Below, piece after piece: positions 1 through 36,604 of a stretch of 64,000 nt of DNA. Source of the stretch: Tricharina praecox (taxonomy: Eukaryota). The notes below the pieces were generated by a model, which was not told where the DNA came from, searched no databases, and saw only the letters and a program-made list of their open reading frames with translations. Each line of letters opens with the position of its first letter. The first letter of the stretch is position 1. The translations under genes were made by a program, and so were the position numbers. The stretch covers positions 186,001-250,000 of the forward strand of contig NW_026250404.1 in NCBI RefSeq assembly GCF_024521635.1. The letters run 5' to 3'.

Positions 1-313
1 AGTTTTAGCTGGTGATCCGGCACATGGACCTTGCAAGTCGCCATTGGCATTCGGCCCCACATATCCGCTCCGGGTCCACTCTTCCCACCGCCCCCCATAC
101 ACAAAACTTTGGACGTTCCGGTGGAAACGATTAACGTAGGGAAGATGGTTATTCCGGCCTACCTATGTAGAGTACTCATGTATGTACGAGTTGCTATGTT
201 TTCTCGGCGGACTGCGAAACAGGCGGAATCTTGGTACATGACAAACTAGGTAGCTACTTCTGTATAGTCAACGGGGAGTCAAAAATGCGTTGTTCTTCCC
301 GCAGGACACATAT

Positions 314-369
314 TGATATCGTATCAGGGCATAAAAAACACGTATTTTGACCGTACTGATACGATATCA
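314..369. repeat. Perfect 14-bp inverted repeat (hairpin) with a 28-nt loop
   Basis: TGATATCGTATCAG (314-327) and its exact reverse complement CTGATACGATATCA (356-369), in an AT-rich patch. Confidence 0.85.
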
Positions 370-1014
370 CTAGCATTTTCTTAAAAATACATTAAAACTA
401 TGACGACAAGAGTCCTACGGAAGACATGTCGTGGTGAAACTAGGGAGTTTTCAGATGGGCAGGTACAAGACAAAGCAAAGCAAATGGCACGCACACTCGA
501 CGGAAATTGTCACTGTTATGTCAGTGGATCATGAGACTACACTCGGTGAGCGACAGAACTTGGGCTTGGGCCCGAGGTTTGGACTCGGATTCGGGCGACG
601 GAATTCAGCTCGGACTCGGGCTCGGGGGGTCTAGAAAGGCTGTATACGAAAACAAAATGATCTTCTCTCTATCTCTCACAGACCGGAGGTCCGGAGGATC
701 GAAAAGCAGCAACCTGTCCTCGAGTCTCGACGGTCGCAGGCCACACCCACAGGGGAAATCAAAAGAGCATGAGTGGACAAACAATGAATGCCTGAGCGGT
801 GAAGCCGAACGTGTTTTGGAAACACCGTAAATGTCACTCCTTGCAGTCCTCCCGGGCCTTCAACTCGAGCCGATTCCCCTCAATTCCATTCCAGAGTAGA
901 TACTATGGTATCTGATCACCTCGTCGGGCACCCCGACCGCGGATCATAAAACCTCCATCCGCCTCCCCCACCGCTTCAGCTTCCCCATACTAACCAACAG
1001 AAGAAGAAGAAACC

Positions 1015-1695
1015 ATGCTCTGCCCGACCTGCTCCGCGACCTACTGCGGCGAGTGCCACGTGTTGTACACAGGGCCACTGGGGATAATGTGGGTAGGCAA
1101 CGGGGCGCACATGCCGTGGTGCTGCTCCTTCGAGCCGCCCGTGCCGCCGCGGGGACAGGGTCCCCTGCACCGCGAGGAGCAGTGTTTCGAGGCGGCGCGG
1201 GAGCGTGTTAGGGTTTTGAGGGCGGAGATGGAGGTGGGAGGGTGGGGGAAGGATGGGGAGGGGGAGATAAAGTACGTGGAGGAGCTGGTGCCGGTGCAGT
1301 GGGCGAGTAGGCAGACAAGGAGGGAGGTGGAGAAGACAAGGAGGAAGGACAGGAGGAAGTGGGAGAGGGAGAGGATGGAGAGGAGGGAGTGGGGGAGGCT
1401 GAGGAGGGAGTGGGAGAAGATCAGGAGGGAGAGGGAGAAATCGGATAGAGGGGATAGAGTGGGCCCGTGGAATCCACGAGGCCTGTTCACCACGTTATTG
1501 AGGAGTTCTAGCAGCGGGGATTGCTACTCGCGGAGGTATGGCTGCGTTCTGGGACCGTGGGAGATGCTAATGGAGAGGTTTCTGCGGTGGTTTGTGTGGA
1601 GCACCGGGGCGGGGATGTGGGTGGTCGAAGGGTGGAGGTGGAGGAAGGAGCTGTTGGTGTTGACGGGGTTGTCGCAGTTGTTGGTACTTGAGTGA
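1015..1695 (+). CDS. Hypothetical protein with an N-terminal Zn-binding module resembling the C-terminal half of a fungal RBR RING2/IBR domain
   Basis: 226-aa ORF with good start context (aaccATG). CPTC-x4-CGEC...GNGAH-x3-C resembles the C..C...FC..C...GN.AH...C motif. A charged coiled-coil follows. CTAAC...CAG just upstream allows an unseen 5' exon. Confidence 0.5.
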   Translation: MLCPTCSATYCGECHVLYTGPLGIMWVGNGAHMPWCCSFEPPVPPRGQGPLHREEQCFEAARERVRVLRAEMEVGGWGKDGEGEIKYVEELVPVQWASRQTRREVEKTRRKDRRKWERERMERREWGRLRREWEKIRREREKSDRGDRVGPWNPRGLFTTLLRSSSSGDCYSRRYGCVLGPWEMLMERFLRWFVWSTGAGMWVVEGWRWRKELLVLTGLSQLLVLE

Positions 1696-1842
1696 TGAGT
1701 ACGACTATGGCAAGTGAGCCGAACTCATGGTAAAGCGAGAAGAAGATGGTCTCTTCAGGTGAATCCTGTGAGATCCCAATACATTATCCCACTAAATGAT
1801 CAGACTTCATCCCACTAAATCAAAAGGTATATTCGCTTGCCA

Positions 1843-3282
1843 CTACGGCCCCTCTTCAAAAATCTTCCAATGTTTCTTCAACCTCTTACAAAGCCCACTC
1901 CTGTCCTTCCACTCCTCCACCACATCCGCCAGCTCGCATCCGACCTCGACCATCTGCTGCCAGACAACCATCTCTATATCCTCCCCAAACCTCTCGACGG
2001 CCTTGTCCTTAGTGCCCCAAAGCCTCACATGCTTCCCCTTATCCTCCAGATCACCCTCATCGACTAGATGTCCCGCATTCATCTTGGGCGTATTGGCATG
2101 GATGAAAGCGGGCCTGACAGTCTTCCCGGGGGTAAGCTCGTCGCCGGGATGAAACTGCACCATCCCGCTGCCCTTGAAGCTCTTATTCGACTTGAAGTAA
2201 CCCAGCAAGGCCACTGGCGTCTTGACGCGGGCCCACTTCGCGCCCAGCACCACCGCAGCGGACAGAAACGTTTCCTTGTCGCCCTGTCCCAGCGCTCCCT
2301 GGCTGAGCAGCTCGTAGTACCATCCCGGACCCCAAATGTTGTAGTACACCGCCAGCAGCAGCGTCTGCATATGTCTCCTCTTGTCGATCAGCACCTGTCC
2401 CGCCTCGCACCCCGTCGGCGGGAGGTCCTTCGGGAACGCCGGCATGCCAGTGATGTTCCAGAACACGGGGTCCTCCGTCGCCTTCCAGAAGTCGGGCCAG
2501 AGCACGAGTCCCGTGCTGGTGTACGGCTTCTCGGTAAACAGACTTGTCGGATCGAGCAGCGGGATGGAGTCGGAGTCGAGGTAGAGCACGTGTCGGAACG
2601 TGCTAAACAGCATCGCGAGGGATTTCAGCTGGTAGTGAGCGACCTCGGGCGACAGCGGCGGGGAGAGAAACGCGGGGATGAAGACGCAGCGGGCGTTCAG
2701 GGCAGGGAGAACACTCTGGCAGAGCTCGGGCTCGTACTCCTCGCGCTTGCCGAGGAACACCTCTACGCGGAGGGTGCACCCGGTGCGGCGCAGCATGCGC
2801 AGCGAGACAATGGCGGGGCCGAAGTACTCCCCCCCGGCAACGATCACCACGCCCGTGCCGTCGTAGATATCCGTCGCGGTGTTCGACAGCGAGCTGCGCA
2901 TGGAGCGGAGGCTGCGGAGCATGCCGGCGTGCGACGAGCGGAGTGAGGACACATCGTGGTTGGTCAGGAAGAGGTAGGTGCGCGCGGGCTTGCGCGGGTA
3001 CGGCAGGTCGTCGCCGCGGACGTTGGCGGCGGCGGTGCCGCGGAGCTTGAGAGGTGGGATGTGGGGGCGTGCGGCGTGGAGGTGCTCAGACCACACGGCG
3101 AAGAATGTCTTGATGTGTTTTTGCGCGGGGTCGAGGACGGGGTGCTGCGCGGTGGTGCTCGTGGCTGTGTTGGCGGTTTCCGGGAGCGTGAACAGGGATG
3201 TCCAGTTGATGTAGGTTATCGAGAAGAGCACGGTGATGCCGAGCAGCACGGTGATTATGCGGGAGGTACTGAAACGCGGCAT
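1843..3282 (-). CDS. MNN2: Alpha-1,2-mannosyltransferase, GT71 (MNN2/MNN5 family), type II membrane protein
   Basis: Intronless ORF with N-terminal TM anchor. Motifs GVVIVAGG, LRMLRRTGCTLRVEVF, YQLKSLAMLFSTF, LYLDSDS (DxD), LWPDFW, EAGQVLIDK, SQGALGQGDKETF. ATG is at 3282; the ORF-track start at 3285 is GTG. Confidence 0.92.
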   Translation of the reverse strand: MPRFSTSRIITVLLGITVLFSITYINWTSLFTLPETANTATSTTAQHPVLDPAQKHIKTFFAVWSEHLHAARPHIPPLKLRGTAAANVRGDDLPYPRKPARTYLFLTNHDVSSLRSSHAGMLRSLRSMRSSLSNTATDIYDGTGVVIVAGGEYFGPAIVSLRMLRRTGCTLRVEVFLGKREEYEPELCQSVLPALNARCVFIPAFLSPPLSPEVAHYQLKSLAMLFSTFRHVLYLDSDSIPLLDPTSLFTEKPYTSTGLVLWPDFWKATEDPVFWNITGMPAFPKDLPPTGCEAGQVLIDKRRHMQTLLLAVYYNIWGPGWYYELLSQGALGQGDKETFLSAAVVLGAKWARVKTPVALLGYFKSNKSFKGSGMVQFHPGDELTPGKTVRPAFIHANTPKMNAGHLVDEGDLEDKGKHVRLWGTKDKAVERFGEDIEMVVWQQMVEVGCELADVVEEWKDRSGLCKRLKKHWKIFEEGP

Positions 3283-3713
3283 CACGAAGGCGCGTAGATG
3301 GTGCGAGGTTCACGATGGGAGGATTGATGTTCTTTTTGACATAATTGCGGTTGTGCCTGTGCGAGTAATGCAAGATAAGAGGTTCGTGAGGTGGTCACAG
3401 CTCCCTCGCTTCGCTGGCGAGACGTACGCATGTTACGTAAAATGCTTGGCATGGGGTACGACGACCGCAACGGCAATGACGGATACGAGACTAGCTAGCC
3501 ATTGCGGATTCACTGAACAGAGCACTTTGCGATGGGAGAAGAAATTTACAAAGTTTCAGAAATCATCATCATTGTCTCGTTTTCGTTTGATCCTGTTGTG
3601 AGAAACAAGGGCATGTAACACAGTAGCTCATCCACAGACCACAGACCACGCACTAACAACACCATCCGACCATCAAGAGGCCTTCTCTGTTGACAGCGAC
3701 TATAGTACCGTAA

Positions 3714-4628
3714 TCAAGCAGCAGTGAGCGATGCTCCACCTCCACTTGCAGCTCCAGAGCCCTCCTCTCCACCAGCTCCAGGGCCTCCCCTTCCGCCCCT
3801 CCTGAACCCGCCACCACCACCGCGCCGGTTTCCTCTTCCTCCGAATCCCCTCTCCCTCGCACGAACCACATGGGCACCACCCGCATGGACCTGAGCCGTC
3901 GCAATGACGGTTCCGTCCTCGTTCTTGATGGTCCACTTCTCGTCGTCCAGATCAACAGTATATCCCAGCTGCTGCGGGGACAAGACGTTGCACTTGAGGG
4001 TAGGCACGTGGTAGGCCGTGACCATGATGGGCTTGTGGTCGCCGCCCTCCTGGCCGTGGATGCGCAGCGTGGTCTCTCCGTATCCGACCGCCTCGTGCGT
4101 CTGTCCCTTATTCGTGGTGATCGTCTTCTTCTCGGGGTACGCGGCATAGGTCTTGAAGATCTGCTTGGAGGCAGCGAAGTTCGAGGAGCTCTCGGTGCTC
4201 AGGATCCAATCGAAGCGGCGCAGGGAGGTGATGACATCCTCGGGGAAGTCGACGCAGACCTCGGGGTTGGGGGGTCCCGGGGGCTCGGAAGTCGGCGCCC
4301 GTGCGGTACGACCGCCCTCGCGGCGTTCGTGCGCGGAGGCCTCGTGGCGCTCGTGCGACGCTTCCTTGAGGTCGGTCTCGAGCGTGGTCCACAGCTTGAC
4401 GGGGTCCGTGTGCTCGATGTACTTGGCTTGGATGCGGCTGTTCATCTCGAGGAGGATGGTGGCGAGAGCTTGGTCGCGCTTATCCTCCCAGGCCACGGAG
4501 TTGTCGAACTGCGTAGCGCTGGTGCGGCCGTCCACGATAGACCAGAGGCATTGCTGCTGCAGGACGAGCTTCATCTGCACCGCCCACGGGACGTAGTTGG
4601 TTTCACCGAGGCTGATCTTCTGCTGCAT
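3714..4628 (-). CDS. Ty1/copia-derived protein: Gag N-terminal region (DUF4219/UBN2-like), inactive protease beta-barrel, RGG tail; candidate domesticated retrotransposon gene
   Basis: 304-aa intact ORF from aaaATG at 4628. LGETNYVPWAVQMKLVLQQQCLWSIVDG and WEDKRDQALATI...LWTTLE are copia-gag motifs. WILSTESSSNF...AVGYGETTL...YHVPTLKCNVLS matches the copia protease barrel (WxxDSGAS...G.G...l.VP.l..NLlS). C-terminal RGFGGRGNRRGGGGGFRRGGRGG. Confidence 0.8.
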   Translation of the reverse strand: MQQKISLGETNYVPWAVQMKLVLQQQCLWSIVDGRTSATQFDNSVAWEDKRDQALATILLEMNSRIQAKYIEHTDPVKLWTTLETDLKEASHERHEASAHERREGGRTARAPTSEPPGPPNPEVCVDFPEDVITSLRRFDWILSTESSSNFAASKQIFKTYAAYPEKKTITTNKGQTHEAVGYGETTLRIHGQEGGDHKPIMVTAYHVPTLKCNVLSPQQLGYTVDLDDEKWTIKNEDGTVIATAQVHAGGAHVVRARERGFGGRGNRRGGGGGFRRGGRGGPGAGGEEGSGAASGGGASLTAA

Positions 4629-6407
4629 TTTGGGGGTCGTGGGCGGGTGGGACCGTCGGGTTTGCCGGGAAACTGCGAATGTGGGTTCGCGGCTGGCTGG
4701 TTGAGGGATGGCGGGTGACAAGAAGAAGAGAGAGAGATTAATGTTGATAGGGGGAAACCAGTGGGGTATACTAGTTGTTGGGGGGGGGTGCGGGGTGAGC
4801 AGTTGTGTAACCGCCCGCTTCATAGGGCTTAGGTCTTGCGTTGGAGATCACGTCCACACACGGAGGGCAAGGCTGAGGCACCGCACAACTTGCATGTGTC
4901 CAATAGCACCTGCTGTGTGCCAGCCCTGCCATTTATCAGCACAATGCAGCCCCGTCCGGATGCAACAGAGTGCAGAGAAATTGCAGGGAGTTGAACACAG
5001 TCATCCAATCAGACGGCCTCTACCCTCGAGAGCTGCACAGTGGAGAGACGCATCCGGAGATGTTGAGTCGCGATACTCGGAGCATCGCTATCTTCCATCG
5101 ATCACTCGCACATCGACCCCTGCAAATCGACCCCCACACCGAAATCGAATCCGTTTGAGTGGGCAGGAAAGGAGTGAGACGGTTCGCCATAGGTAGTCTA
5201 CATAGGCTGCGTTCGAAATATATTGAAGATCTCTCTCTCTATATCGAATCTGTTTCCCATCTCTAATCAAGTTGCAAAGGCCTTCCTCAGCATGCGGAAA
5301 GAATCCCACCCAAAGCACTTCACACCGACCGACCGAGTGATCTTGAATGATGACCTCCCACGACATTACATCCATCCAACAAGCCATCCGACATGAAAAT
5401 ATCACCCGGACAACTTGAACGTCACATCCTACACACAGAATTTAATGCATACGCCCTTCCCACTCGTACTCATAAGCACATCTGCCGGCCCCCCTCCTCC
5501 TCCTCCTCCTCGCTCTCAGCACAAACCGCACAACATCCGCACAACATCTGCAAATACCCCCAAATAGTTACCCCGATCACTTCCGGAACGCTTACTCACT
5601 CTCTCACCCACTCCCTCACTCAAAGCACAATCACAATCACAATCCCAAGCCCAATCCCAAGCCACCTACCCACCTACCAAGCAAATACCAGTTCACTACC
5701 AACCCCTCTGGCGCTGCCACGTCTGCCTCAAAGTCCGCTACATGATGGAGACTAAAGTATGCAACGATGTACAGTGCCAACAACTCCGCTGCGAGCTGTG
5801 TTGCGCCTACGCCGGCCCTGGGCTGTGCGTGCCGTTGGGATCACGTAGGTAGGTAGGTAGGTAATTACGAGGATACCCAGGAATCATCGGGATGACGCTG
5901 ATGCCGATGGGGGGAAGGAAGGTGGGGGAGGTGAGAGAGGTCTTGTGAAGACGGTGAATTGAGTGGGTTTTGACATTTGTTGGGTGTTTTGCTTTTTGCA
6001 TGTGTGCGTGAAACTACTAGTAAACGGGCGGAACTGGACGGATGTCAGCCCTTGGGGTGGTGACATCCACCAGGTTGAAGCCCCGCGAATCAGATGCCTG
6101 CGGAGATCGGATATATATAGACACGCAGCCGTCTGGTTGGCTGTCAAGAGTCAAGGTCCACCAACTGCATCGTATCGATAGGGCACCGAATCCAGAGAGA
6201 GTGAGAGAGCCAGACTGTCGGAGGCTCTCCAGGCTCCAACATCAGGCTGCGCGTGTAGTGCAGTGCAGTTATGCATGTATCTTTGTAACTGTGTGTACGA
6301 CGATCGTCGTCTGCGCACCTCAGTCCACAGACAAATAGATGACCATCCCCGCGGTCGCCCGTCTACCCACGGTACCGCATCTCTCTCCATCTCGAATCCC
6401 ACGCAGC

Positions 6408-7166
6408 ATGCCCCTCACCACCCTCCCCAACGAGCTCCTCATCCTAATTACCTGTACCTTCCGGGCACGGGACCTGCTGAACCTCACCAGCACCTGCCGC
6501 AACCTCTACCACCGACTGTCCGCGCTGCTCCCTCCCATCGCGCTTACCGACCACCTCCGCGCCACCCCGGCGCTCAAATCCGCCCTCCGGCGATGCTGCG
6601 AGGTAGACAACGCCGAACTCACCCTGCACCTTTTATACCTCTCCCGCGCCCCCCCCGTAAACGCTTGGTTCAGCGACACATTCGGACTCGAGACCGCGCT
6701 GCACGTATCCAGCGCGCACGGCAGCCTTTGTGTCACGCGGTTGCTACTCTTCCTGGGGGCAGACGTGAACGCGCGGGATATTGGACGTATAACGCCGCTG
6801 CACGCGGCTGCGGCGGGGGTCGGGTGTCGCGGTGGTCATCCCGAGGTCGTGAGATTGCTGCTGGATAGTGGTGCGGAGGTACACGCCTTCGCGGCCGGGG
6901 ATGCGTCACCGCTCTTGTTTGCGTGTGTTGGTGGGAACACAGAGGTGGTGAGGGTGCTCGTGAAATATGGCGCGGAGGTGAGGGAGGGGTTGGGTGGGGT
7001 GTGGAGTTGTGGGAGGATTGGGGGCGTGGGCAGGGTAAGGAGGACGGGGAGGAGGGGCGGGATGGATGCGCTGGAGTATGTGCCCTTGAGTTTCTTGGGA
7101 TGGAGGGAGAGGGTGTGGGCGTGGTATTGGGCGGCGTGTAGGAGGGTTGGGGTGTGTAGGAGATAA
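6408..7166 (+). CDS. F-box plus ankyrin-repeat protein
   Basis: LTTLPNELLILI...DLLNLTSTCRNLY (F-box), then TALHVSS...LLLFLGADVN, TPLHAAA...VVRLLLDSGAEV, SPLLFACVGGNTEVVRVLVKYGA (three ankyrin repeats). An alternative in-frame ATG lies at 6339. Confidence 0.85.
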   Translation: MPLTTLPNELLILITCTFRARDLLNLTSTCRNLYHRLSALLPPIALTDHLRATPALKSALRRCCEVDNAELTLHLLYLSRAPPVNAWFSDTFGLETALHVSSAHGSLCVTRLLLFLGADVNARDIGRITPLHAAAAGVGCRGGHPEVVRLLLDSGAEVHAFAAGDASPLLFACVGGNTEVVRVLVKYGAEVREGLGGVWSCGRIGGVGRVRRTGRRGGMDALEYVPLSFLGWRERVWAWYWAACRRVGVCRR

Positions 7167-7352
7167 CGGCGGGGGGTGGAAGGGGGGGGGGGGGGGGGAT
7201 GGAATGCGTGTTGATAGTATCAAAGTAGTACGCTGCCCACAGGCGCAGCCAAAATAATGTCTAATTGATTTCAAACAACAATACAAGCAGCCAAGTAAAT
7301 CCGCAGCATTAACAACCCCCACCATCCCTATTCCCGCTAGTTAACTACCCCG

Positions 7353-7632
7353 CCGTGTTCGACATACTGCAGTCCGGACTGTCTGGTCTGCCAAGCTCTG
7401 TTCCGGTCCGGCCCTTCGGACGTCCGACGGACTGCCGAAAAGCAGTCCGTCTCCGTCCCGCCCATGGATTCCGAGGACTGCAGTCCGTCCCGACCTCAAA
7501 ACCTTTTGGACTACCTAGTCCGTCCAAACACCGCTCCCGGACGGACTGCCGAGAATCGAGATATAGTCCAGTCCAGTCCGATCCGAGCCCTAGGACGGAC
7601 GGACTGGACTGGGCTATGTATGTAGAACACTG
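7353..7632. mobile_element. hAT-type MITE (280 bp) with perfect 8-bp TSD
   Basis: TIRs CCGTGTTCGACATAC / GTATGTAGAACACTG. Identical flanking CTACCCCG at 7345-7352 and 7633-7640. Many internal (C)AGTCC/GGACT subterminal repeats and an 18-bp internal hairpin at 7563-7617. Confidence 0.9.
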
Positions 7633-7899
7633 CTACCCCGTCCCCGATCCCGCCCTCGACCCCCCCTCTGCCCCTTCGCCCACCTCCGTAGGCCCCTGAG
7701 GCCCCGGCGGCCCCGGCGGCGCCCTCCTCCCCGCCAGCCAATGTGTCTTCCCAATGGAGCACCACAGGCCAAAGCCGTAGTAGACACTGCAGCGCGGGCA
7801 GCGGACGTGCGCACATTCCTCGTTCGCACACCGCTGGCGGTTGTTGGTGGTGTGCACTTTCCTGCACTGGTGGCAGCGCCAGAGCGGGCGGGCTGCCAT
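7633..7899 (-). CDS. Small Cys-rich putative zinc-ribbon protein (88 aa)
   Basis: Strong start context (cacaATGg). WRCHQC-x11-C-x4-C-x-H-x2-C-x2-C pattern followed by a G/P-rich tail. Confidence 0.55.
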   Translation of the reverse strand: MAARPLWRCHQCRKVHTTNNRQRCANEECAHVRCPRCSVYYGFGLWCSIGKTHWLAGRRAPPGPPGPQGPTEVGEGAEGGSRAGSGTG

Positions 7900-8511
7900 T
7901 GTGAGTTGATACTTGGTTAGTTAGAACTGTTTTGTTTTGTTAGTGGTGGGTTGATGTTTAATGAGTTAATGAGTTGGTCAATGAGTCAATGGTTAATGAG
8001 GCAATGAGTCGGTGTGTCGCTGATGTGTTTAGTCGGCTTGATGTGCTTGATGAAGGCTTTTCTGTTCTGTTGATTTGGTGTGTGTTGCAGAAGGTGCTGG
8101 ATGAGATTACCAGTGCTCGACGAGGCGGGGATTATATCGCTACTAATCGTAGAATCCCCAGCAGCGGTGCTCACTCTTCAAAGTTGGGTGTTGGTACGGC
8201 GGCTTCAAGTCGAGTGTCCATCATGGTCACTGAAATTGCCTGTAGCGGGACCTCCCAAGCGCAGACGAGAGGTTAGACGAGATTCATTCGCTCGGACGAA
8301 CTCAACCCAACCCACCATAATTCTTCACGCGTCGCGAGAAGTCGAAATAAGCTTAACCAGGCCCTGCAGCGCTTAGAGTAGTTTTCTCCGCTTGCGGCTA
8401 AGCAGTAGTGTGCCCACTCAAGTGGAATTCGATTCAACAACGGCTACGCAAAAGACAGATCCTCCGTGTGCTACTACATATGTGCTATGTGCTATGGTAT
8501 CATATCCTATC

Positions 8512-10227
8512 CTAATAAACCCTCTTCGAGACCCTAACCAAAATGACCCCCTTCGAGTGTCGTCCCTCGTTATCAAACAACCTCACGAGCCTGACGCCCT
8601 CTTGCAGGCGATCGAGTCTGATGCAGGCCCACGCGGCGAGATCGTCTCTTCCCAGCTCCTCGTCATGCACCTTAAAGCGCACAAACGTGAGTTTTTCGAT
8701 GACGCCCTCGACAGCCTTGAACTCGAGGGTAGTGTCCCAGACGCACTCGATGCCGCGCTTCGCCTTAGTCTTTCGCTTGACGTCGGCGGACTTCGCGTTC
8801 TCGTTGGTCGTGTGGACCTCGACTTTGACGTACGGCTCAAAGCTCTTGGCCTTGTCGTCTTCCTCGGGCATGGGCAGGTTCGCGGCCGCGATCACATCGA
8901 TCGTGAGGTCGAGCTTGTGGAAGACCGGTGGTGCATCACCCGGTCGGAAGCCGGGCGGCTTGAGCACGTACCCGCCCTCGCCCGCGAACATGCCTTCGTT
9001 CAGCATCATGCCCTCGTCGCACTTTTGCCAGTTGAGCGCGACCAGCTGCACGCCGCGCTTCCAGAACTCGGTGGGATCTGCGTTGCTCGACGAGAAGCGG
9101 AGGCCGAAGGGGTACACCCTCATGAGATACTTCTTGTTGTGCTCGAAGATGGCCTGGGCGTATGTTTCGTGGTGTTTGGCGAAGACCTTTTCCGAAAAGG
9201 AGTAGACGTGGTTGGCGAGGCGGCTGGTCGGATGTTCCGTGAAAGGTTGGGGATACGTGTTACCAGGGAAGTGGTGGGAGCTGCAGTACGCACCCAGCCG
9301 TGCGAGCGGCCGGATCACTTTGCTCTTTTTCGGCTTCTTCTGTTTGGCCTGGCCGGCCAGGGCTTCGAGTTCGCTGTCCGACGAGTCCGAGGAAGTGTCG
9401 TATCTAGGCTTGCTTGGGGCAGGGTTGGCCGCAGCAACAACTGCTTCTGCTGGTGCTTTCTCGGGAGCAACATATTTCGCCTACTTCCATCAGCCGGAGT
9501 TGCGTGAAGGATCAAAGACACACAAGCGCAAACATACCTTAACGAGGATCTTACCACGCAGAGCGTCAGGACTAGGCAGATTGTTGACATCCTCAGGCTC
9601 AATATCCTTCACCAGACTGTCACCCCAGACTTTGTTCATGATGTCGACCATCTTATTCTGCTGCTGGATACCGGCATGGCACTCCAACGAGATGATGATG
9701 GGTCCCTGCCCAGCCCCTCCGTATCGCTCCGCCTCAACGTCGGAGAACGCATACTCCTTGATAGCCTTGCAGACATCCTTGAACCTGATCTCCTTGGTGA
9801 GGGTGTAGCCATGGAACACCTCCGGCTCACCATCATCGCCATCCCACACATCGATCTCGATGCACCTACCACCACGAACAAGAACATTCTCATACCCCTC
9901 GGTAGTAGAAGCGCCATACAGCTGATGTCCCACTAAGTAGGTATTATGCGACGACGAGATGAAGTACTCATTGAAAGGATGGCTCCAGTCTTTCTTCGCT
10001 GGGTCTGGCAGCGCGAGAATTGAGTTTTCCGGGTGCGCGAGGTACTCGGAGAACTCGTAGAGCGAGCAGTCCGGCCGCAGCTGCAGGCGCGCCAGCTCGC
10101 TCGACGACAGCTTGTCGTGGATCTTCGAGATGCACTTTTGCAGCAGCGGCGAGCTCAGGTCGGCTTTTGTCGCGGGTGCGGAGCCGCCGCCGGCAGCGTC
10201 CGTGGTGGGTGCGACGTCGCGGCCCAT
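8512..10227 (-). CDS. Phosphoinositide-specific phospholipase C (X, Y and C2 domains), 2 exons
   Basis: YFISSSHNTYL, RCIEIDVWDG, VFHGYTLT, IIISLECH (X box). LMRVYPFGLRFSSSN, GVQLVALNWQ, GYVLKP (Y box). C2 domain. Intron 9481-9537 (GTATGT...GCTGAT...TAG) joins the frames to give 552 aa. Confidence 0.95.
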
Positions 10228-11122
10228 CGTTGTGTATAACTAGTGGTAGCAGTGGTCGGTTGTGGGAAGTTCGATCGTTTGGCTCGCGAGGCGGGGCAGC
10301 GAGGGGGCGGGGTAAAATTCAGTGGGATGGAAGCTGTGAAGGAGAAAGAAGTGATCGATGGGAAACAGCAGACAGAAGCTATGATATGTACCTATGCGTC
10401 TGGGGCAGTCTAATATGGAAACCACGGCCCCGATCGATGGCGCGGCATCGTACCGGCGAACACGGCACGCAACGGGGTGGGGCTGGCCATTCCTCAAAGC
10501 GGGGCGGACGCCCACAAGTTTTGGCGTTATGCGTGTTTGGCGTTCAAAGCGCTGATGTTGGTGATGGCTGATCCCTGCGCGGCCAAGTGCTAGCTTGGGT
10601 ACGTACTTGCAGGGTTGCGTGTTTCCCCGCTTAGGCCGGCCACGCCTATGGAGATACGCAATGTTTGTAAGGAAGCTGAACTGCATCATATGGCGGGTTC
10701 AAGGGAAGCGTCGAAGCGATTCCCAGCGCAAACAGGAATTAGTAGAAACATTCCAGGTCCACATATATTGGAAGGGGGGTGGCGGAGGGGAGGCAAGGAA
10801 CATCGTCAGCAGGATATACGGCATCAATGCCTGCCTTCTCGTTCAGACTACGATACAAGAGGAAGCCATAATGAGCAAATAATTATTTCACGGCAGTGGG
10901 TCTTATCTACAGATCGAGGCTGCTGCTACTCAGATCCCATATCATGCCAAACAAAAAGCAGAAGGAAAAAAACGAGAAGTCTCTACAAGCCATTTCAACG
11001 CCGGCGAAAAAACACCCCAGTATTATGTTGCTCAAAGAGAAAACCGTCGTGTCCAACTGAAAACGAAAAATCCATAAACAAAAAACGTACGGGGATAACT
11101 CCCAAAGCCCCCATGCAACCAT

Positions 11123-14100
11123 TTAATCTGCCAAAACCATTCTGAGCGCATTCAAAAAGTCGGGTCCAAGCTTGACAATCTCATGAACGACCGGCTTTTG
11201 CGGCTCGCCTGACCGTGCTTTGAGATGATCGGCATGACGCTTCCGTCTTTTGCGTTCAGTTGCGATCACATCACCCGTATTATCATCTTCCTCCGCTTCG
11301 GAATCGGTGTAATAGTCCTCATCCGCTAGAGAAGCCAAATCGTCCTGGGTCTGATTGTCAGTGAGACTGCTCGAAACGAATCCAGAGCACAGGGTAGCCA
11401 ATAAACTCACATCGGCAATTCCAAAGTCCTTGGGACTCAGCCCGCCAGGCGCCGTAGCCGTCCAGCCGTCCCTGCTCTTCGAATTGGCCGCGTCACCGCT
11501 GGCCATCTTCTGCCGGGTCTTGTCTTGATGCCACTTTCTGCGTCTTGCTTGCCAGTCGATCAAGGAATCGATTTCGGCCTTCGCCTTCTCACCGTCGATG
11601 GTTCCAGCCTTGACTGCCTGCTCGAATAGGAGGTTCATGTCCAGCTTGCCGCCTCCTTGGGGACCACGTCGCAAGAAAACCAAAATTTCCTCCAACCATC
11701 CCATCAACTTATCGAATAGGCCATCATCATGAATGTGCACTTCGTGGACAAACTTGTAGAAGTTGTCTTCGTGCCTGGCACACAGGTCGATGAAGGACTG
11801 GACTGTTTGATTGGGGTCCGTAGTCATCTCCTGTGACTGCGCTTTTTCGATCACGACGATCATGTCGTCTATGAAGACGGCAAAATCCGTTACCGAGTTG
11901 TACACGTTTGCCGACTTGTACACCCGAATGAGCGGCTCGTAGAAGATAGTGAAGAGATCACGGAACAATTGCAAGGTGACCGGCTACAGCATAACATGTA
12001 AGCGAAAGGTGTACGGTGGGGGAGAGAGAATAGATGCACCAACCTCTTCGATCATCGCTTGCATCATTTCCTTATCCCTCTGCCTGGTGTAAAGCTTCAG
12101 GAGCTGCTTCAGGTAGGCAAAGTACTGAGCATTGCTCTTGATCTCATCGTGTATCTGTTCATGAGACGTAAGCGGACGATTCACGCGCAAGCAAGTTCTT
12201 TCCACTCACGTTATCCACGGCTTGCGTGTATCCAACGTAGGAATTGAAAACCTTCTCGATCTGCTTGGGTTGTAGTTCCGCTCCGATCTCCTCACTCTGG
12301 AGTATCACAACCACCAAGTCGTTTCTCTCTTCTGCGGCTTGTAATCTGATGGCATCCTTGACCTCTTCGTCGGCCCTAGTGAACGCCTTGAGCTTCTCGC
12401 AAAGGATAGGATCGTCGATCTTCTCGATCAACGAGTCCACACTCTTCTGGATATGCTTGATTCCGTCACCGATGGCCATGGATAACACGCGCTGCATCAG
12501 CGATCGGCTCTTGAAAGGTGTGGCAAGGAATAGGTCGAGAACACCACTCATGACGGCAGCTGGATTTGCAATCCTGATGACATTCTTGAGAATCGTGTAC
12601 GGAATGAGGGAATGAATCCTCTTTCCTTGTGTGAAGAGTTCGGCGGAGTTGTCCTCAGCAAGGAATAGATGGTAGATGGTAGCCGCAACCTCTATCCGCA
12701 GCCACTCGGCGAATTTTCGGTATTGGATATCAAGATCCGCAAGTTTGTCCTTTTTGCGGATCTCACTAAACAGCTTGGTGAGGCCATCTGAGAGGTCCAG
12801 TCAGTCATGGAAAAGAAAAAGAAAATCGTGAGGGATCAGCGCGGTAGGACACATACTGCTCTCGACAATATCTTTCCTAAAGCTTTCCATGTAGACATCT
12901 AGTTCACGTGCCCTCTGTCGGGCAACCTCGTAGAACTTTCTCTGTTCTTCGAGCCGGATCTCATCCATGGCGCGCCTCCGGTCCACATCCAACTGTTCCT
13001 CCTCGTTGAGCTTGATGGGATTCTTGATGAGGAACGCCGTCATCGCTTCACTGTTGGCGACCTGCTTATCTTCCAAGAGCTGTCTGATGAAGGCCCGAAG
13101 GCTGACACGCTGATTCTCGCGCCAAAGCTTGATGGGTTGGTCCCTGGGCTCCGCAAGGGATGACCTGGAAGGATTGCGAGAAATAAAGCTACCGAATCCC
13201 AAGGCATTGCCCAGCGAGCTCGATTTCTTGTGGCCTGGCTGGGGCGTCGGGGCCCTCGTGGAGCCACCGGTGGATGTGGATGTGGACCCTTCGCTCTCGA
13301 ACGACGAAATCGAGGAAGCATCATCGCTGGTGATGCCTGCAGCGGAAAGATATCCGGATGTAGTGGCTTGGGAAGCCTTCATCTTGCGGGGAACAGGCGG
13401 CAAAACCTTACCGGGAAGTTCGTTTCGCAGCTGCGGGAATTAATGTCAGTCTACCTTTTTGCAATCCGGGGGAAAAATAATGATGCAGCCTTCCTTACCT
13501 GTCGATGTAATGACTGAAAGGCGCCATATCTCCGCCCTATCGTGAGATCCGGGTGTCCCTGACGTCTGACGCGCAATATGAATTCTGCATGAGTGTGGTA
13601 TCTGACGGTCCTCTTGATGCTGGTTTGGCGCACGCATGCCACATTCACATCCCATCCGTTGATCCAATGACCTTCAGGCGCGTTCGCCAGTAGAGCACTC
13701 TCCTGCGCATTCCTATCGGCGCCGCCTGCAGCCTCGATCTCATCGAAGGTAACTCTCTCCTCGTATCCGGAGGCCGTGGGGATCCCCGAATTCATCATCA
13801 GCTCGACGATTTTCTGACATTTCAGCGCCAGCTTGCGTCGCTTCGTCTCTTCGAGTCGGTCTTCGGAGGATGAGATACGTTTCAGCGCGAACGACTCCAG
13901 AAACTGAATATCGGGCAAACGGAGCGACAATCAGCTGGCGATCGACGGGACGAGCAACAATCTCACGGCGAAGAGTTTGCACGCACCACTTGCAGTCGGT
14001 CCTGCCAGAATTCCTTCTCCTTCGCTTTGTCGAGGAACGGAAAGTTCCGCAAATGGTTCACGAAGATATATCGGAGGATGGGAAGCTCGCTATCGACCGG

Positions 14101-14390
14101 CGCTACCTCGCCGAGGGGACTCTGGAACGGTGCGCCGAAACGCTGGAGGGCGGTAGGAGAGTTAAGCTCGCTGATCTCGAATTGCGACTGCCGCGAGATG
14201 AGTTCGCGCTTGAGGTCTGAGTTTGAGTTAGTTTCAGCTCGACGTTGAGATGACGATGGCGAGCAAAGAAAGCGGGGTACGTCGCTTGTGGGGGAAACCT
14301 ACAGTGCTCCTGCTTCCCTGTGAGCACGCGACCGGTGTCGGTGACCGATAAGGTTGAGATCCCAAGAGCTGGGGCGAGTGAGTCCGACAT
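11123..14390 (-). CDS. PXB + PX + DUF3818 protein (yeast YPR097W/LEC1-like), about 8 exons
   Basis: Splicing 14302-14217 restores QEHYLKRELI (PXB). PX-like RRYGAFQSLHRQLRNELPGKVLPP and LWRENQRVSLRAF. DUF3818-like LFRDLFTIFYEPLIRVYKSANV and FYKFVHEVH. Canonical introns are visible between the ORF pieces. Confidence 0.9.
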
Positions 14391-33800: not shown

Positions 33801-34370
33801 GACTCGCTGTAAATGTGAGGTACCGGGTGTTTCGGATAGACGGGGTGTTTTCGCCGTTCAAGACATCGCTTCGTGTTTTTGTTTACTCCAGTTGCGGTGG
33901 GTGCTCAGCACGCTCTCCAGACTCCGATCATCCGCTACATACAATGGGCAGCTAGAGCACGATGCTAGAGCAGAGTAGAGCATAGTCACGTCCCCAAGCA
34001 GTTACCCCCGGGAGTCCAGCTGCTAGTTAACCGTGCCAAGAACTCGTCTGGATGAAGTGAAGTCCACCGGCCAATCGGGAGCCGTGGATAAGTTGACTGA
34101 GTCCTCGCTACCCGCAGCCCGTCAATAGAGCGATCCGGGGTTGGTTACACGGCGAGAACCCGCACCAGTTCGGCAGCACTTCAGACATCCGGGGAGCAAA
34201 TCAGTTCTAGAAGCCTGACTGCAGGTCTGTAACAATCCGCGACAGCTCCTCAGCCCCCGTGGAGCTACGCCTAATGCATCGCGATGACCTCCTCCCACCC
34301 TCCCCTCATAAGGGGGAGACAGCCCCCCTCTCGCAGGTTCTCGTCTGGATCTTCTAGGTGACCATCAGCA

Positions 34371-36604
34371 ATGTCTACAACTGCCACGACCGCGGCCACG
34401 GTCATGGCCGCAGAAGCGTCTGCACCAACCGCGGAAACCCCCCTTCTCACACCCTCTTCCCCGGCACGAGCACTTACCGACACACAGTGGGAAACGCTCC
34501 TGGCCTTCGCGGACACGCTTGTGCCCGCCCTGACGACCTCCGAAGTCCTCGCCGTGCGGTCCTCAGTCACGCGCACGGTATCGTCTCCGGACTGGCCGGC
34601 GATCGACCGCTTCCTGCATTCCTCATGCCGCGATTCCCCCGAATTCCGCTTCTATCTCGATGCCGCACTGCACCGATCCCCGGCCAGCGCAAAGCTGGCG
34701 CGCGTCCTCGACATCCTGCAGCGCGGCGGCTGGATGACGTATCTCGCCACGGGCAGCTGGAAGCCGTTCCTGTCGCTCGAGCGGAGTGAGCGCGAGACGG
34801 TGCTCGCCGGGTGGGAGGGCGCACGGCTGCAGGTCTTTCGCCGGCTGTTTGCTGTCCTCAAGGTCATGACTGTCGCCTCGCTGCTGCGAATGTCGCCGAC
34901 GGCCCTGGAGGCGCTGGGTTACCCGCGCGTCGATCCTGACAAGCCGGAGAAACCGCAGTTCCACAAATTCGAGTTCGAGGAGCTTCCCGCTGGGAATGTG
35001 GCCATCGATGCGGACGTGGTGATCGTGGGCAGCGGAGCCGGCGGTGGTGTCGTTGCGCAACGCATGATGCAGGAGTTTGAGGGGCAGGGGTTGAGGCTTT
35101 GTATCCTCGAGCGCGGCGACTGGATTCCCACCGACCAGCTGCCGCTCAGCGAGGCGACGCACGGCCGGATGTATGCCGGAGGCGGAGTGGTCAGGACGGT
35201 GAGCGGGAACGTCGCGATGGTTGCGGGCTCAACTTGGGGTGGCGGTACGGCAATCAATTACTCTGCGTCTCTCCAAACGCCAGCAAAAGTGCGTGAGGAG
35301 TGGAGCCGTGAGTATGGACTGGATTTTGCCGAGACGGCAGAGTTTCAGGAGTGTTTGGACATGTATGTTCTTCTCTTCTTTTTACTTTTTTTCCCTCTCG
35401 CCCGGGCCTCAAGACGGCGGCTGCTGACGAGTCATCGTGAAGGGTCTGCGACTACATGGGCGTTTCGACCGACAACATCCAGCACAATTCTGCAAACTCG
35501 CTCCTCATCGATGGCTGCAAGAAAACAGGAATGGACTACAAGATCGTGCCGCAGAACTCAGGTGGCAACGCCCACAACTGCGGCTACTGCTGCTACGGCT
35601 GTCCTTCGAACCAGAAGCAAGGCGGCACAGCAACATGGCTCGTCGACGCTGTCACCCGCGGTGCGAAAGCAATCCAGCGCTGCCACGTGCGGAAGATCAA
35701 CTTCTCGTCCACGAACGCAGTGACCGGCATCGATGCCGTGATCAACGGGGGCACCACTCACCTCACGATAAACTGTCCGCGCGTAGTAGTCGCCGCCGGC
35801 GCGCTCTACACGCCATGCCTCCTGCTCTCCTCAGGCCTCAAAAACCCGCACATCGGCAGCAACCTCAAGCTGCATCCCGCTGCCGGAATGTGGGCGTTCA
35901 TGCCGAGCACAGTCCCGACGACGCCCTGGCGCGGTCCCATCCTAACCGCGCTCATCACCGAAGCCTCAAATCTGGACGGCAAATACTACGGCGCGCGCGG
36001 GATCTGCGTTCCTCACCACCCAGGCTTCCAAGGCCTACAACTGCCCTGGGGCAACGCCGTACAATGGTGCCAACGCATCCTGCGCTACAAAAACAGCCTG
36101 AGCACGGTCTCGATCGCGCGCGACCGCGACTCCGTTGGCACCGTGACCCCGCACCCCGAGTCCGGCGAGCCGCTGATCAACTACACGTACGCGGCGTTCG
36201 ACCGCGCCGCCGTGGTCGAGGGCCTCGTCGCCCTGGCGAAAGCCTACGTGGCCGCCGGCGCAGAAGAGGTCTGGGTCGATGTTTGTGGCCTCCAACCGCA
36301 CGTCGTCAACAAGGATGGTGTCGCTTCGCCGGAGTTTAAAGCGTGGTGCGATGATATGCGCGCTCGTGGAATTGAGGATAGGGCTACGAGCGCTCATCAG
36401 ATGGGAACGGCGAGGATGGGACAAGATGAGGAATCCTCTGTCTGTGATACACAGGGAAGAGTCTGGGGCACAGAGGGGCTGTGGGTCGCTGATAGCAGTC
36501 TATGTCCCACTGCTACGGGGGTCAATCCCATGGTCTCGACTATGGCGCTGGCGGCTTGGGTCGCGAAGAGTGTGTGTAGGGAGGTTGCGAGGGGGAAGAC
36601 ATGA
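34371..36604 (+). CDS. FAO1: Long-chain fatty alcohol oxidase (GMC oxidoreductase), 2 exons
   Basis: LTDTQWETLLAFADTLVP N-terminus; DVVIVGSGAGGGVVA (FAD); AGSTWGGGTAINYSAS; CGYCCYGC; SAHQMGTARMG; PTATGVNPM. Intron 35363-35442 joins the two ORFs in frame. Confidence 0.93.

Follow-up and report, generated by a model that had tools for sequence, protein, structure and literature searches.

That Gag genes can be co-opted is well established for animals; for fungi, the only cases known to us are three that were found computationally and Drt2 of yeast. Here we describe the P0001 gene on the minus strand of a 64-kb stretch of DNA (contig NW_026250404.1, positions 186,001 to 250,000; this whole stretch is referred to as the window), which is very probably an intronless host gene, present as a single copy in the window, that derives from the gag and protease part of a Ty1/copia retrotransposon. 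A sequence-only reading of this stretch had proposed that the 304-residue product, P0001, joins a copia Gag N-terminal domain to a pseudoprotease and an RGG tail, and the computational analysis presented here followed up on that proposal.

The closest fungal counterparts were reported by Wang and Han, who described three gag co-options in fungi, with two of them, Crtg12 and Crtg13, being derived from copia and both residing in Dothideomycetes (PMC8321522). Using tBLASTn over 2,011 eukaryote genomes, these two genes were mapped to Lentitheciaceae/Lindgomycetaceae and to Pleosporales/Mytilinidiales (PMC8321522). Based on the available part of that paper, Crtg12 and Crtg13 resemble the P0001 gene in being fungal, copia-gag-derived, single-copy, syntenic and expressed, with a ratio of nonsynonymous to synonymous substitution rates (dN/dS) below 1, but they differ from it in host class (Dothideomycetes vs. 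what appears to be Pezizales) and in that this part describes no protease-derived portion for them (PMC8321522). The three signs of co-option used by Wang and Han, namely shared synteny, dN/dS below 1 and expression, are all found for the P0001 gene.

For the restriction of a transposon by one of its own derivatives, the relevant precedent is Ty1, where p22/p18 and the endogenised Drt2 poison the lattice of Ty1 virus-like particles (VLPs) through the capsid C-terminal domain, as laid out in the accessible portion of the report (PMC13709905). Drt2, as described there, is similar to P0001 in that it is a fungal Gag derivative of the Ty1/copia superfamily at a fixed locus, under purifying selection and transcribed (PMC13709905). 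In contrast, 1) Drt2, p22 and p18 comprise the capsid C-terminal domain with its dimer interface, whereas P0001 consists of the N-terminal domain, a dead protease and a basic tail; 2) Drt2 in that account occurs in one species, at a tRNA hotspot rich in Ty elements, whereas the P0001 family spans to 35% identity with no remnants of transposable elements (TEs) around it; 3) restriction has been demonstrated for Drt2, while for P0001 it is suggested by analogy.

A parallel in domain content is provided by RTL8, a Gag comprising only the N-terminal lobe that binds the capsid N-terminal domain of PEG10 and lowers VLP output; in the available part of that study, RTL8 is, like P0001, a domesticated truncated Gag with an N-terminal capsid lobe, and it forms no particles alone (PMC11684626). 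Unlike P0001, RTL8 (of the mammalian Mart family) is of Ty3/gypsy origin, resides in animals, has no protease-like domain and targets a domesticated gene rather than a transposon. PEG10 and RTL1 share with P0001 the feature of being host genes that keep both capsid and retropepsin parts of a long terminal repeat (LTR) retroelement. PEG10, which is also of Ty3/gypsy origin, forms particles and has retained the complete capsid together with a knuckle and a protease whose DSG is active; P0001, unlike PEG10, has a halved capsid and a dead protease. Ddi1-type proteins, in turn, have the same fold class as the C-terminal domain of P0001 (7d66_B, Z 6.6), but they keep the catalytic D[ST]G and carry ubiquitin-like (UBL) or ubiquitin-associated (UBA) modules, whereas P0001 has no UBL/UBA module in Pfam and the catalytic Asp is missing in 12/12 members of its family. 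A screen for fungal TE co-option dealt with host-TE fusions and, in its available part, does not describe the P0001 family (PMC10799480); our full-text search of the literature found no description of a host gene combining copia Gag with a dead protease. We regard the architecture as unusual: all members join the N-terminal domain of a capsid to a protease devoid of the catalytic Asp, and the fungal class is apparently another one than that of Crtg12 and Crtg13.

Results

P0001 comprises half of a copia capsid and a dead protease

The copia Gag N-terminal motifs claimed for P0001 are borne out by Pfam (matches counted above the curated cut-offs), with DUF4219 at residues 7-32 (E 6e-8) and Retrotran_gag_2 at residues 19-89 (E 1e-8), the latter covering only profile positions 1-75 of 172, and they are followed by Pol_BBD at residues 141-221 (E 9e-9). 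In five full-length copia polyproteins obtained from the exhaustive search described below, the domain order is usually DUF4219, full Retrotran_gag_2, Pol_BBD, gag_pre-integrs, rve, SH3_retrovirus and RVT_2; three of these polyproteins also have a zf-CCHC match (Pfam, E of 0.001 or less), located after Gag and ahead of Pol_BBD. Relative to these polyproteins, P0001 is without positions 76-172 of Retrotran_gag_2, the knuckle and everything beyond the protease barrel. The CCHC pattern itself was found in 0/12 family proteins vs. 5/5 copia controls, in agreement with the earlier claim that the knuckle is missing.

Our first AlphaFold model, built from a 9-sequence alignment (A1), was unusable, with a predicted local distance difference test (pLDDT) score of 41.6, and it has been superseded by a model from a 136-sequence alignment (A3) with a mean pLDDT of 84.7. 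When averaged over blocks of 10 residues, pLDDT in the A3 model is 93-98 across residues 11-90, 68 and 52 in the linker (residues 91-110), 91-96 across residues 121-250 with the exception of 80 at residues 191-200, and 46-58 in the tail (residues 261-304). In a VIA structure scan, independent of Foldseek, against 48,161 PDB representatives, model residues 2-95 aligned with residues 5-93 of 184 in the Drosophila copia capsid (8vvw_A; Z 12.3, root-mean-square deviation 2.2 A over 89 residues, 14% identity). As this alignment covers the capsid N-terminal domain only and the Retrotran_gag_2 match stops at position 75, the absence of the C-terminal part of the capsid, as surmised from the sequence, has been upheld. 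The same scan matched model residues 130-252, at moderate Z, to the Toxoplasma Ddi1 protease-like domain 7d66_B (Z 6.6, 99 residues) and to the proteases of equine infectious anemia virus (EIAV; Z 5.8) and xenotropic murine leukemia virus-related virus (XMRV; Z 5.7), with 86-100 residues aligned over all three retropepsins. Foldseek returned a probability of 1.00 for both the XMRV protease (E 4e-3) and the copia capsid. A sequence-profile search of PDB with alignment A1 yielded 0 matches at E of 1 or less, and hence it is Pfam and the fold that connect P0001 with the copia capsid. Prediction of a homodimer from two copies of residues 122-260 gave a score of 0.00 with controls absent, a result that is neutral on dimerization.

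The second half of P0001 had been read as a protease beta-barrel with its catalytic DSG replaced, and both the Pol_BBD match with its retropepsin fold and the active-site alignment agree with this. At the position where the copia consensus is W-x-x-D-S-G-A-S/T-x-H, P0001 has S-T-E for D[ST]G; among the 96 of the 136 sequences in A3 that span the protease motif, an Asp occupies the catalytic column in 73/96 and D[ST]G is found in 59/96. Within the family, the catalytic Asp is replaced by S, G or N in 10/10 core members and by V in two shorter members, P0011 and P0025. These data confirmed that P0001 is the N-terminal half of a capsid joined to a catalytically dead protease.

Two disordered segments complete the protein. 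A linker of ~35 disordered residues occupies the place of the absent capsid C-terminal domain and CCHC knuckle, and a tail (residues 258-304) contains 21 Gly and 8 Arg/Lys, with 3 RGG and 5 RG. The RGG tail predicted for P0001 is real in this protein, but it does not extend to the family, since 4/10 core members have no RGG at all. The proposal that an RGG module took the place of the nucleocapsid did not hold, as the tail comes after the protease and it is the short disordered linker that stands for the capsid C-terminal domain and the knuckle.

The architecture is conserved in a family of proteins

A word-index search identified 8 relatives of 260-313 residues with 35-65% identity, 7 of which carry all three Pfam domains, P0005 being N-terminally truncated and without a DUF4219 match; a profile word search with alignment A2 yielded 8 proteins and no new members. 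In an exhaustive search of 1.84 billion representatives, only 3 proteins were found at E below 1e-30, the next values being 2e-14 and then those of ordinary copia proteins with ~20-30% identity; the ESM Atlas returned only clusters of copia gag-protease fragments at 0.81-0.85 and no cluster for the family. The family proteins have no informative names, and none of them is sourced from NCBI or UniRef. In a phylogeny built from 74 sequences that span the two domains kept in P0001, the 10 core members together with P0011 and P0025 form one clade, with a support of 95 in the Shimodaira-Hasegawa-like approximate likelihood ratio test (SH-aLRT). The capsid helix WEDKRDQALATILL is almost invariant among the core family, and relatives with as little as 35% identity keep the architecture. 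All 10/10 core members end in a disordered tail that is basic, with 8-11 Arg/Lys, P0011 and P0025 being tailless. Three RGG are present only in P0001 and P0005, with one each in P0002-4 and P0006; RGG richness is confined to the window's own subclade.

Two other groups of Gag-derived proteins were also encountered. P0020 (260 residues) and P0138 (287 residues) have the same short layout of Gag N-terminal part, linker and protease barrel, with D-S-G intact and no basic tail; P0020 is placed on a long branch away from the family (P0138 is outside the tree), and the shortening in these proteins may be independent or may represent an earlier or intermediate stage. P0013 and P0019 contain tandem repeats of DUF4219 plus the Gag N-terminal module, with four copies in the 375-residue P0013, and one 90% cluster of this type includes plant (Alnus) proteins of ~800 residues as well as 111-residue proteins named "ankyrin repeat protein" by their source. 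Here, the capsid N-terminal module seems to have been re-used in another way, as a series of repeats.

The gene is intact, syntenic and free of element hallmarks

The open reading frame (ORF) had been described as an intact one of 304 codons with a good start context and host-like codon usage, and all three points were substantiated: 1) the ORF is uninterrupted from its start Met at 4628; 2) the 115-nt leader is without ATG and the start context is CAAAATG; 3) the G+C content at third codon positions (GC3) is 0.78 (0.85 minus the tail) vs. 0.83 in the neighboring gene. An alternative reading of 369 residues from an ATG at 4823 can be drawn, but this ATG lies outside the contig covering 3567-4743 and the Met at 4628 is where every homologue starts. 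On the opposite strand, there is an open frame of 334 codons (3714-4718, plus) without a Pfam match, which is expected opposite a GC3-rich gene and is not a second gene.

Four related loci (L001-L004) were obtained from a scan of metagenome contigs. The L001 and L002 proteins are 65% identical to P0001 and differ from each other by 2 residues, and gene for gene L001 is collinear with 1000-10228 of the window and L002 with 1000-14223. The L003 and L004 proteins are 34-36% identical to P0001, and these two loci share with the 64-kb window only the gag-like gene and the adjoining MNN2-like gene (60% identical over its full length). The gene order is swapped, with the MNN2-like gene positioned upstream of the gag-like gene in L003/L004 and downstream of it in the window, on one strand in each case. 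This swapped order with continued adjacency indicates that the gag-like/MNN2-like pair stayed together through rearrangement. The gag-like ORF is open and uninterrupted in 5/5 nucleotide copies. The synteny beside MNN2 that had been put forward as a check was thereby recovered in two collinear contigs (9-13 kb) and in two distant ones that retain the MNN2-like neighbor.

In accord with the earlier assertion that LTRs are lacking, no direct repeats of at least 30 nt were found in window 1-12000, nor any of at least 40 nt around the gene in L001 1-12000; L003 5000-16000 contains only two short repeat pairs, at 5078-6083, distant from the gag-like gene. Five copia polyproteins, compared by tblastn with the 64-kb window and L001-L004, matched only at the gag-like gene via their Gag N-terminal and protease parts, with no match to integrase or reverse transcriptase in these sequences. 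The next gene begins 431 bp beyond the P0001 stop (3714 to the MNN2-like start at 3282), as compared with the ~430 bp given before, and the claim that no integrase or reverse transcriptase follows stands. P0001 matched only itself within the 64-kb window. What we could not confirm is the statement that transposase fragments in other parts of the window are decayed remnants: among its 94 ORFs of at least 140 residues (14 overlapping ones being outside the Pfam scan), no TE-type Pfam domain was detected in the other 80 stop-to-stop ORFs scanned, short decayed fragments not having been searched for.

The repeats of L003 deserve mention on their own. They are short and dispersed, ~50-180 nt at 70-85% identity, with direct pairs at 5324/6018 and 5078/5407 and many blastn cross-matches between L003 and L004, and they resemble small non-autonomous elements upstream of the MNN2-like gene.

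The protein is under purifying selection

dN/dS was estimated with the method of Nei and Gojobori (NG86) for two moderate pairs only, dS being saturated for the window vs. L003. For the gag-like gene, the window vs. L001 gave a dN of 0.234, a dS of 0.805 and a dN/dS of 0.29 (bootstrap 0.21-0.40), and L003 vs. L004 gave 0.141, 0.359 and 0.39 (bootstrap 0.27-0.57), respectively. Both intervals exclude 1, the outcome that a host gene had been expected to show. The MNN2-like gene, as a control for the window vs. L001, had a dN of 0.15, a dS of 0.666 and a dN/dS of 0.225 (no bootstrap interval). When the gene was divided into four segments (capsid, linker, protease and tail), all of them showed dN/dS below 1, ranging from 0.18 to 0.35 for the window vs. 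L001 and from 0.23 to 0.69 for L003 vs. L004.

The comparison of L003 with L004 revealed an island of divergence. The two contigs are 98-100% identical over most of 16 kb but only 75-88% identical, with many indels, over ~1.75 kb (L003 ~9900-11650), an island that spans the gag-like gene together with ~780 bp of non-coding DNA downstream. In this pair, the dS of the gag-like gene (0.36) is 14x that of the neighboring MNN2-like gene (0.026), with dN/dS still at 0.39. Divergence of the island type was not seen in L001 vs. L002, nor in the window vs. L001, for which the gag-like dS is 0.80 vs. 0.67 in the neighbor. Repeat-induced point mutation was considered as the source of this island and was rejected, since transitions and transversions occur at ~2:1 with many indels, instead of near-pure C-to-T changes. 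The island may represent two old haplotypes, an introgressed allele or conversion from an unseen paralogue.

The gene is covered by a transcript-shaped contig

In run X1, a single contig of 1177 nt corresponds exactly to 3567-4743, with 0 differences, no joints and no splicing, at a depth of 3765. Its neighbors are on separate contigs, the MNN2-like gene at 1811-3354 with a depth of 229 and the next unit from 5278 with a depth of 95.5; the gag-like contig is ~16x deeper than that of its MNN2-like neighbor in X1, and intergenic bins are at ~1-25, contig depth being a poor measure of level. A similar pattern, in pieces, was obtained in run X2. Pieces of the gene are also present in runs X2, X3 and X4, and matches of at least 99% identity, 338 and 198 nt long, occur in two soil metatranscriptomes. 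As gene-shaped contigs with a 16-fold step in depth are not expected of DNA, we read this pattern as an unspliced, abundant mRNA. The gag-like gene is apparently transcribed, and the transcript-like coverage is strong; the expectation of transcription was in this way supported by an unspliced, transcript-shaped contig covering the gene, with the RNA label of the runs being a guess.

Host and feature coordinates

Going by a single marker gene, the window probably comes from a member of the Pezizales close to Pyronemataceae: the proteins with a name that most resemble its cystathionine beta-synthase exon are from Trichophaea (81%), Pyronema (80%), Morchella (74%), Ascodesmis (74%) and Tuber (70%). 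Rows from soil and wood-decay metatranscriptomes that had small word shares were left out of account as regards habitat. Positions of the features discussed here are compiled in Table 1.

Table 1. Positions of the P0001 gene, its parts and its MNN2-like neighbor in the window, and of the corresponding genes in L003 and L004
Feature	Position	Strand	Basis or remark
Coding sequence of P0001, 304 residues	3714..4628	minus	Includes stop (3714-3716); homologues share the same start Met
Transcribed unit without intron, the coding sequence lying between a 115-nt leader and a 147-nt trailer	3567..4743	minus (strand inferred from ORF)	RNA-type contig
Copia capsid N-terminal domain, residues 1-95 (DUF4219 and first 75 positions of Retrotran_gag_2), with WEDKRDQALATILL helix	4344..4628	minus	Pfam, AlphaFold model
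End of long helix and disordered Pro-rich linker, residues 96-129	4242..4343	minus	Low pLDDT; P116 invariant
Retropepsin-like beta-barrel (Pol_BBD) without catalytic Asp, residues 130-257	3858..4241	minus	Pfam, structure matches
Degenerate active-site motif W-I-L-S-T-E-S-S-S-N	4179..4208	minus	Alignment with copia relatives
Disordered basic Gly/Arg tail, residues 258-304, ending in a GGEEGSG-type acidic/Gly stretch	3717..3857	minus	Low pLDDT, composition
MNN2-like mannosyltransferase gene, conserved neighbor in all four related loci	1843..3282	minus	Pfam Mannosyl_trans3, E 2e-59
MNN2-like gene in L003 and L004	~7681-9159	same as gag-like gene
Gag-like gene in L003 and L004	~9974-10876	same as MNN2-like gene

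Two further observations concern other parts of the window. The RNA-type contig of X1 that starts at 5278 begins ~1 kb upstream of an F-box/ankyrin ORF (6339-7163, plus), and the stretch 5278-6338, in which ORFs are short and without a Pfam match, represents a leader of great length or else a transcript of its own. A GMC oxidoreductase is distributed over two overlapping plus-strand frames, 34362-35720 and 35441-36601, indicative of an intron or a frameshift.

Discussion

The conserved position of the P0001 gene, its dN/dS below 1, the lack of LTRs and pol, the transcript-shaped contigs and an architecture kept down to 35% identity all favor a domesticated copia gene over a live or decaying element, as had been claimed. 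Very probably, an internal deletion in the ancestral element took out the capsid C-terminal domain together with the CCHC nucleocapsid, integrase, reverse transcriptase and the LTRs disappeared, and the protease was deprived of its catalytic Asp, with a basic disordered tail being gained.

What such a protein may do can be approached from the parts it has retained. The two functions put forward from the sequence, an RNA-binding scaffold and a dominant-negative restriction factor, are both plausible. In retroelements, capsid N-terminal domains assemble into capsomers, and a retropepsin works as a homodimer. The modules kept in P0001 are those that make contacts of like with like, whereas those that serve to close the shell, package RNA and catalyze cleavage have disappeared. 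The simplest use for the remainder would be that of a dominant-negative partner of copia proteins, either incoming or resident. We tentatively suggest, by analogy with known restriction factors, that P0001 is a dominant-negative decoy which interferes with the assembly of copia capsids or with dimerization of the protease. According to this proposal, the lone capsid N-terminal domain would join the capsomers of Gag but could not link into a closed shell because P0001 is without the capsid C-terminal domain; the dead half-barrel of the protease would pair with the protease of the element, or fill its substrate sites; and the basic tail would bring this abundant protein to the RNA or ribonucleoprotein (RNP) of the element. 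Given the absence of the capsid C-terminal domain, any poisoning of the lattice would act through the N-terminal domain, as in RTL8. A copia-derived host gene with a decoy role is, taken as a whole, our best explanation, although we hold it with slightly less confidence than doubt. A more elaborate version, in which a two-pronged decoy of an undescribed kind caps capsomers and also titrates the protease into dead heterodimers, with the tail targeting the RNP and divergent alleles being kept by conflict in at least one lineage, would in our estimate be doubtful. We have counted the L003/L004 island, which is seen in one contig pair, as a conflict-type signal in favor of the decoy.

Several observations, however, weigh against a decoy role: 1) no 40-codon sliding window has a dN/dS above 1, with maxima of 0.66 and 0.78, and the protein therefore carries no signature of an arms race; 2) as ~780 bp of the L003/L004 island are non-coding, old haplotypes or introgression may account for it, instead of selection acting on P0001-type proteins; 3) high expression and retention to 35% identity fit a housekeeping cellular role about as well; 4) the known Ty1 restriction factors act via the capsid C-terminal domain, which is absent from P0001; 5) the closest full copia proteins among the 1.84 billion representatives are only ~20-30% identical (best E 2e-13), and no known element stands out as a plausible present-day target; 6) X1 and X2 are RNA runs by guess, and the coverage is that of contigs, whose depth is a poor measure of expression, and not of reads.

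The P0001 gene may instead have been domesticated for a cellular role, encoding an abundant adaptor associated with RNA or RNP, with a tail that binds RNA and with the capsid and dead barrel serving as protein-binding modules, comparable to the co-options of Arc, PNMA and Ddi1. We consider this alternative rather unlikely. In its favor, the depth of the contig is high vs. both neighbors, all four segments are under purifying selection with no window above 1, the basic tail is present in 10/10 core members, and no close copia relative was found among the 1.84 billion representatives. Furthermore, the fungal Crtg genes are likewise single-copy, and in the available part of the paper their cellular roles are unassigned (PMC8321522). 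On the other hand, RGG is not conserved, with none in 4/10 core members and with P0011 and P0025 tailless; without a capsid C-terminal domain, an Arc-like capsid is unlikely; and UBL/UBA modules as in Ddi1 are not found by Pfam. In addition, the gag-like protein has evolved faster than its neighbor (35% vs. 60% identity to the L003 lineage), and a hyperdivergent allele island would be unusual for a housekeeping protein.

The island raises the question of another kind of conflict or recognition locus, e.g. het-like allorecognition or defence against mycoviruses, in which old alleles are maintained by balancing selection. A stretch of 75-88% identity within flanks of 98-100%, with a dS of 0.36 vs. 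0.026, is what such a locus might look like, but we deem this improbable: the pattern occurs in one contig pair only, L001 and L002 differ by 2 residues, and dS for the window vs. L001 (0.80 vs. 0.67) is not comparably raised; moreover, Pfam detected no HET, NACHT or similar domains, the island may be introgression, and the contigs come from metagenomes.

It is very improbable that the P0001 gene is an orthologue of the published Crtg12 or Crtg13 (Wang and Han 2021). Crtg13, from the accessible text, derives from a copia gag, is present as a single copy and is comparable in size (293 aligned sites), no related LTR element having been found for it, and the word "protease" occurs 0 times in that text (PMC8321522). 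Crtg12 and Crtg13 were mapped to Dothideomycete lineages only, whereas the cystathionine beta-synthase of the window is nearest to Pezizales, and none of the 8 family proteins has an NCBI or UniRef source. As the host class differs, the P0001 gene probably arose in a separate event from Crtg12 and Crtg13, which are compared here by description only.

Finally, that the ORF is not a host gene at all, but that of a non-autonomous or decaying copia relic or a neutral remnant still open, would agree with all recognizable domains being retrotransposon-derived, but this scarcely credible reading has already been largely refuted by the absence of LTRs and pol, by the same syntenic place in two contigs and the same neighbor in two distant ones, by 5/5 nucleotide ORFs remaining intact down to 35% identity with dN/dS intervals that exclude 1, by host-like GC3 and by transcript-shaped contigs that cover the gene.

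If P0001 does serve a cellular role, the gene would be a clean case of two retroelement interaction modules being re-used together. If, as we favor, P0001 acts as a decoy that restricts copia elements, it would imply that lattice poisoning could evolve from the N-terminal as well as from the C-terminal domain of the capsid. P0001 would then also be the first domesticated dead-protease inhibitor known to us, none having been found in our search of the literature. Truffle genomes are rich in transposons, and a decoy of this kind, if true, would provide an experimental handle on transposon control in Pezizales, including truffles and morels.

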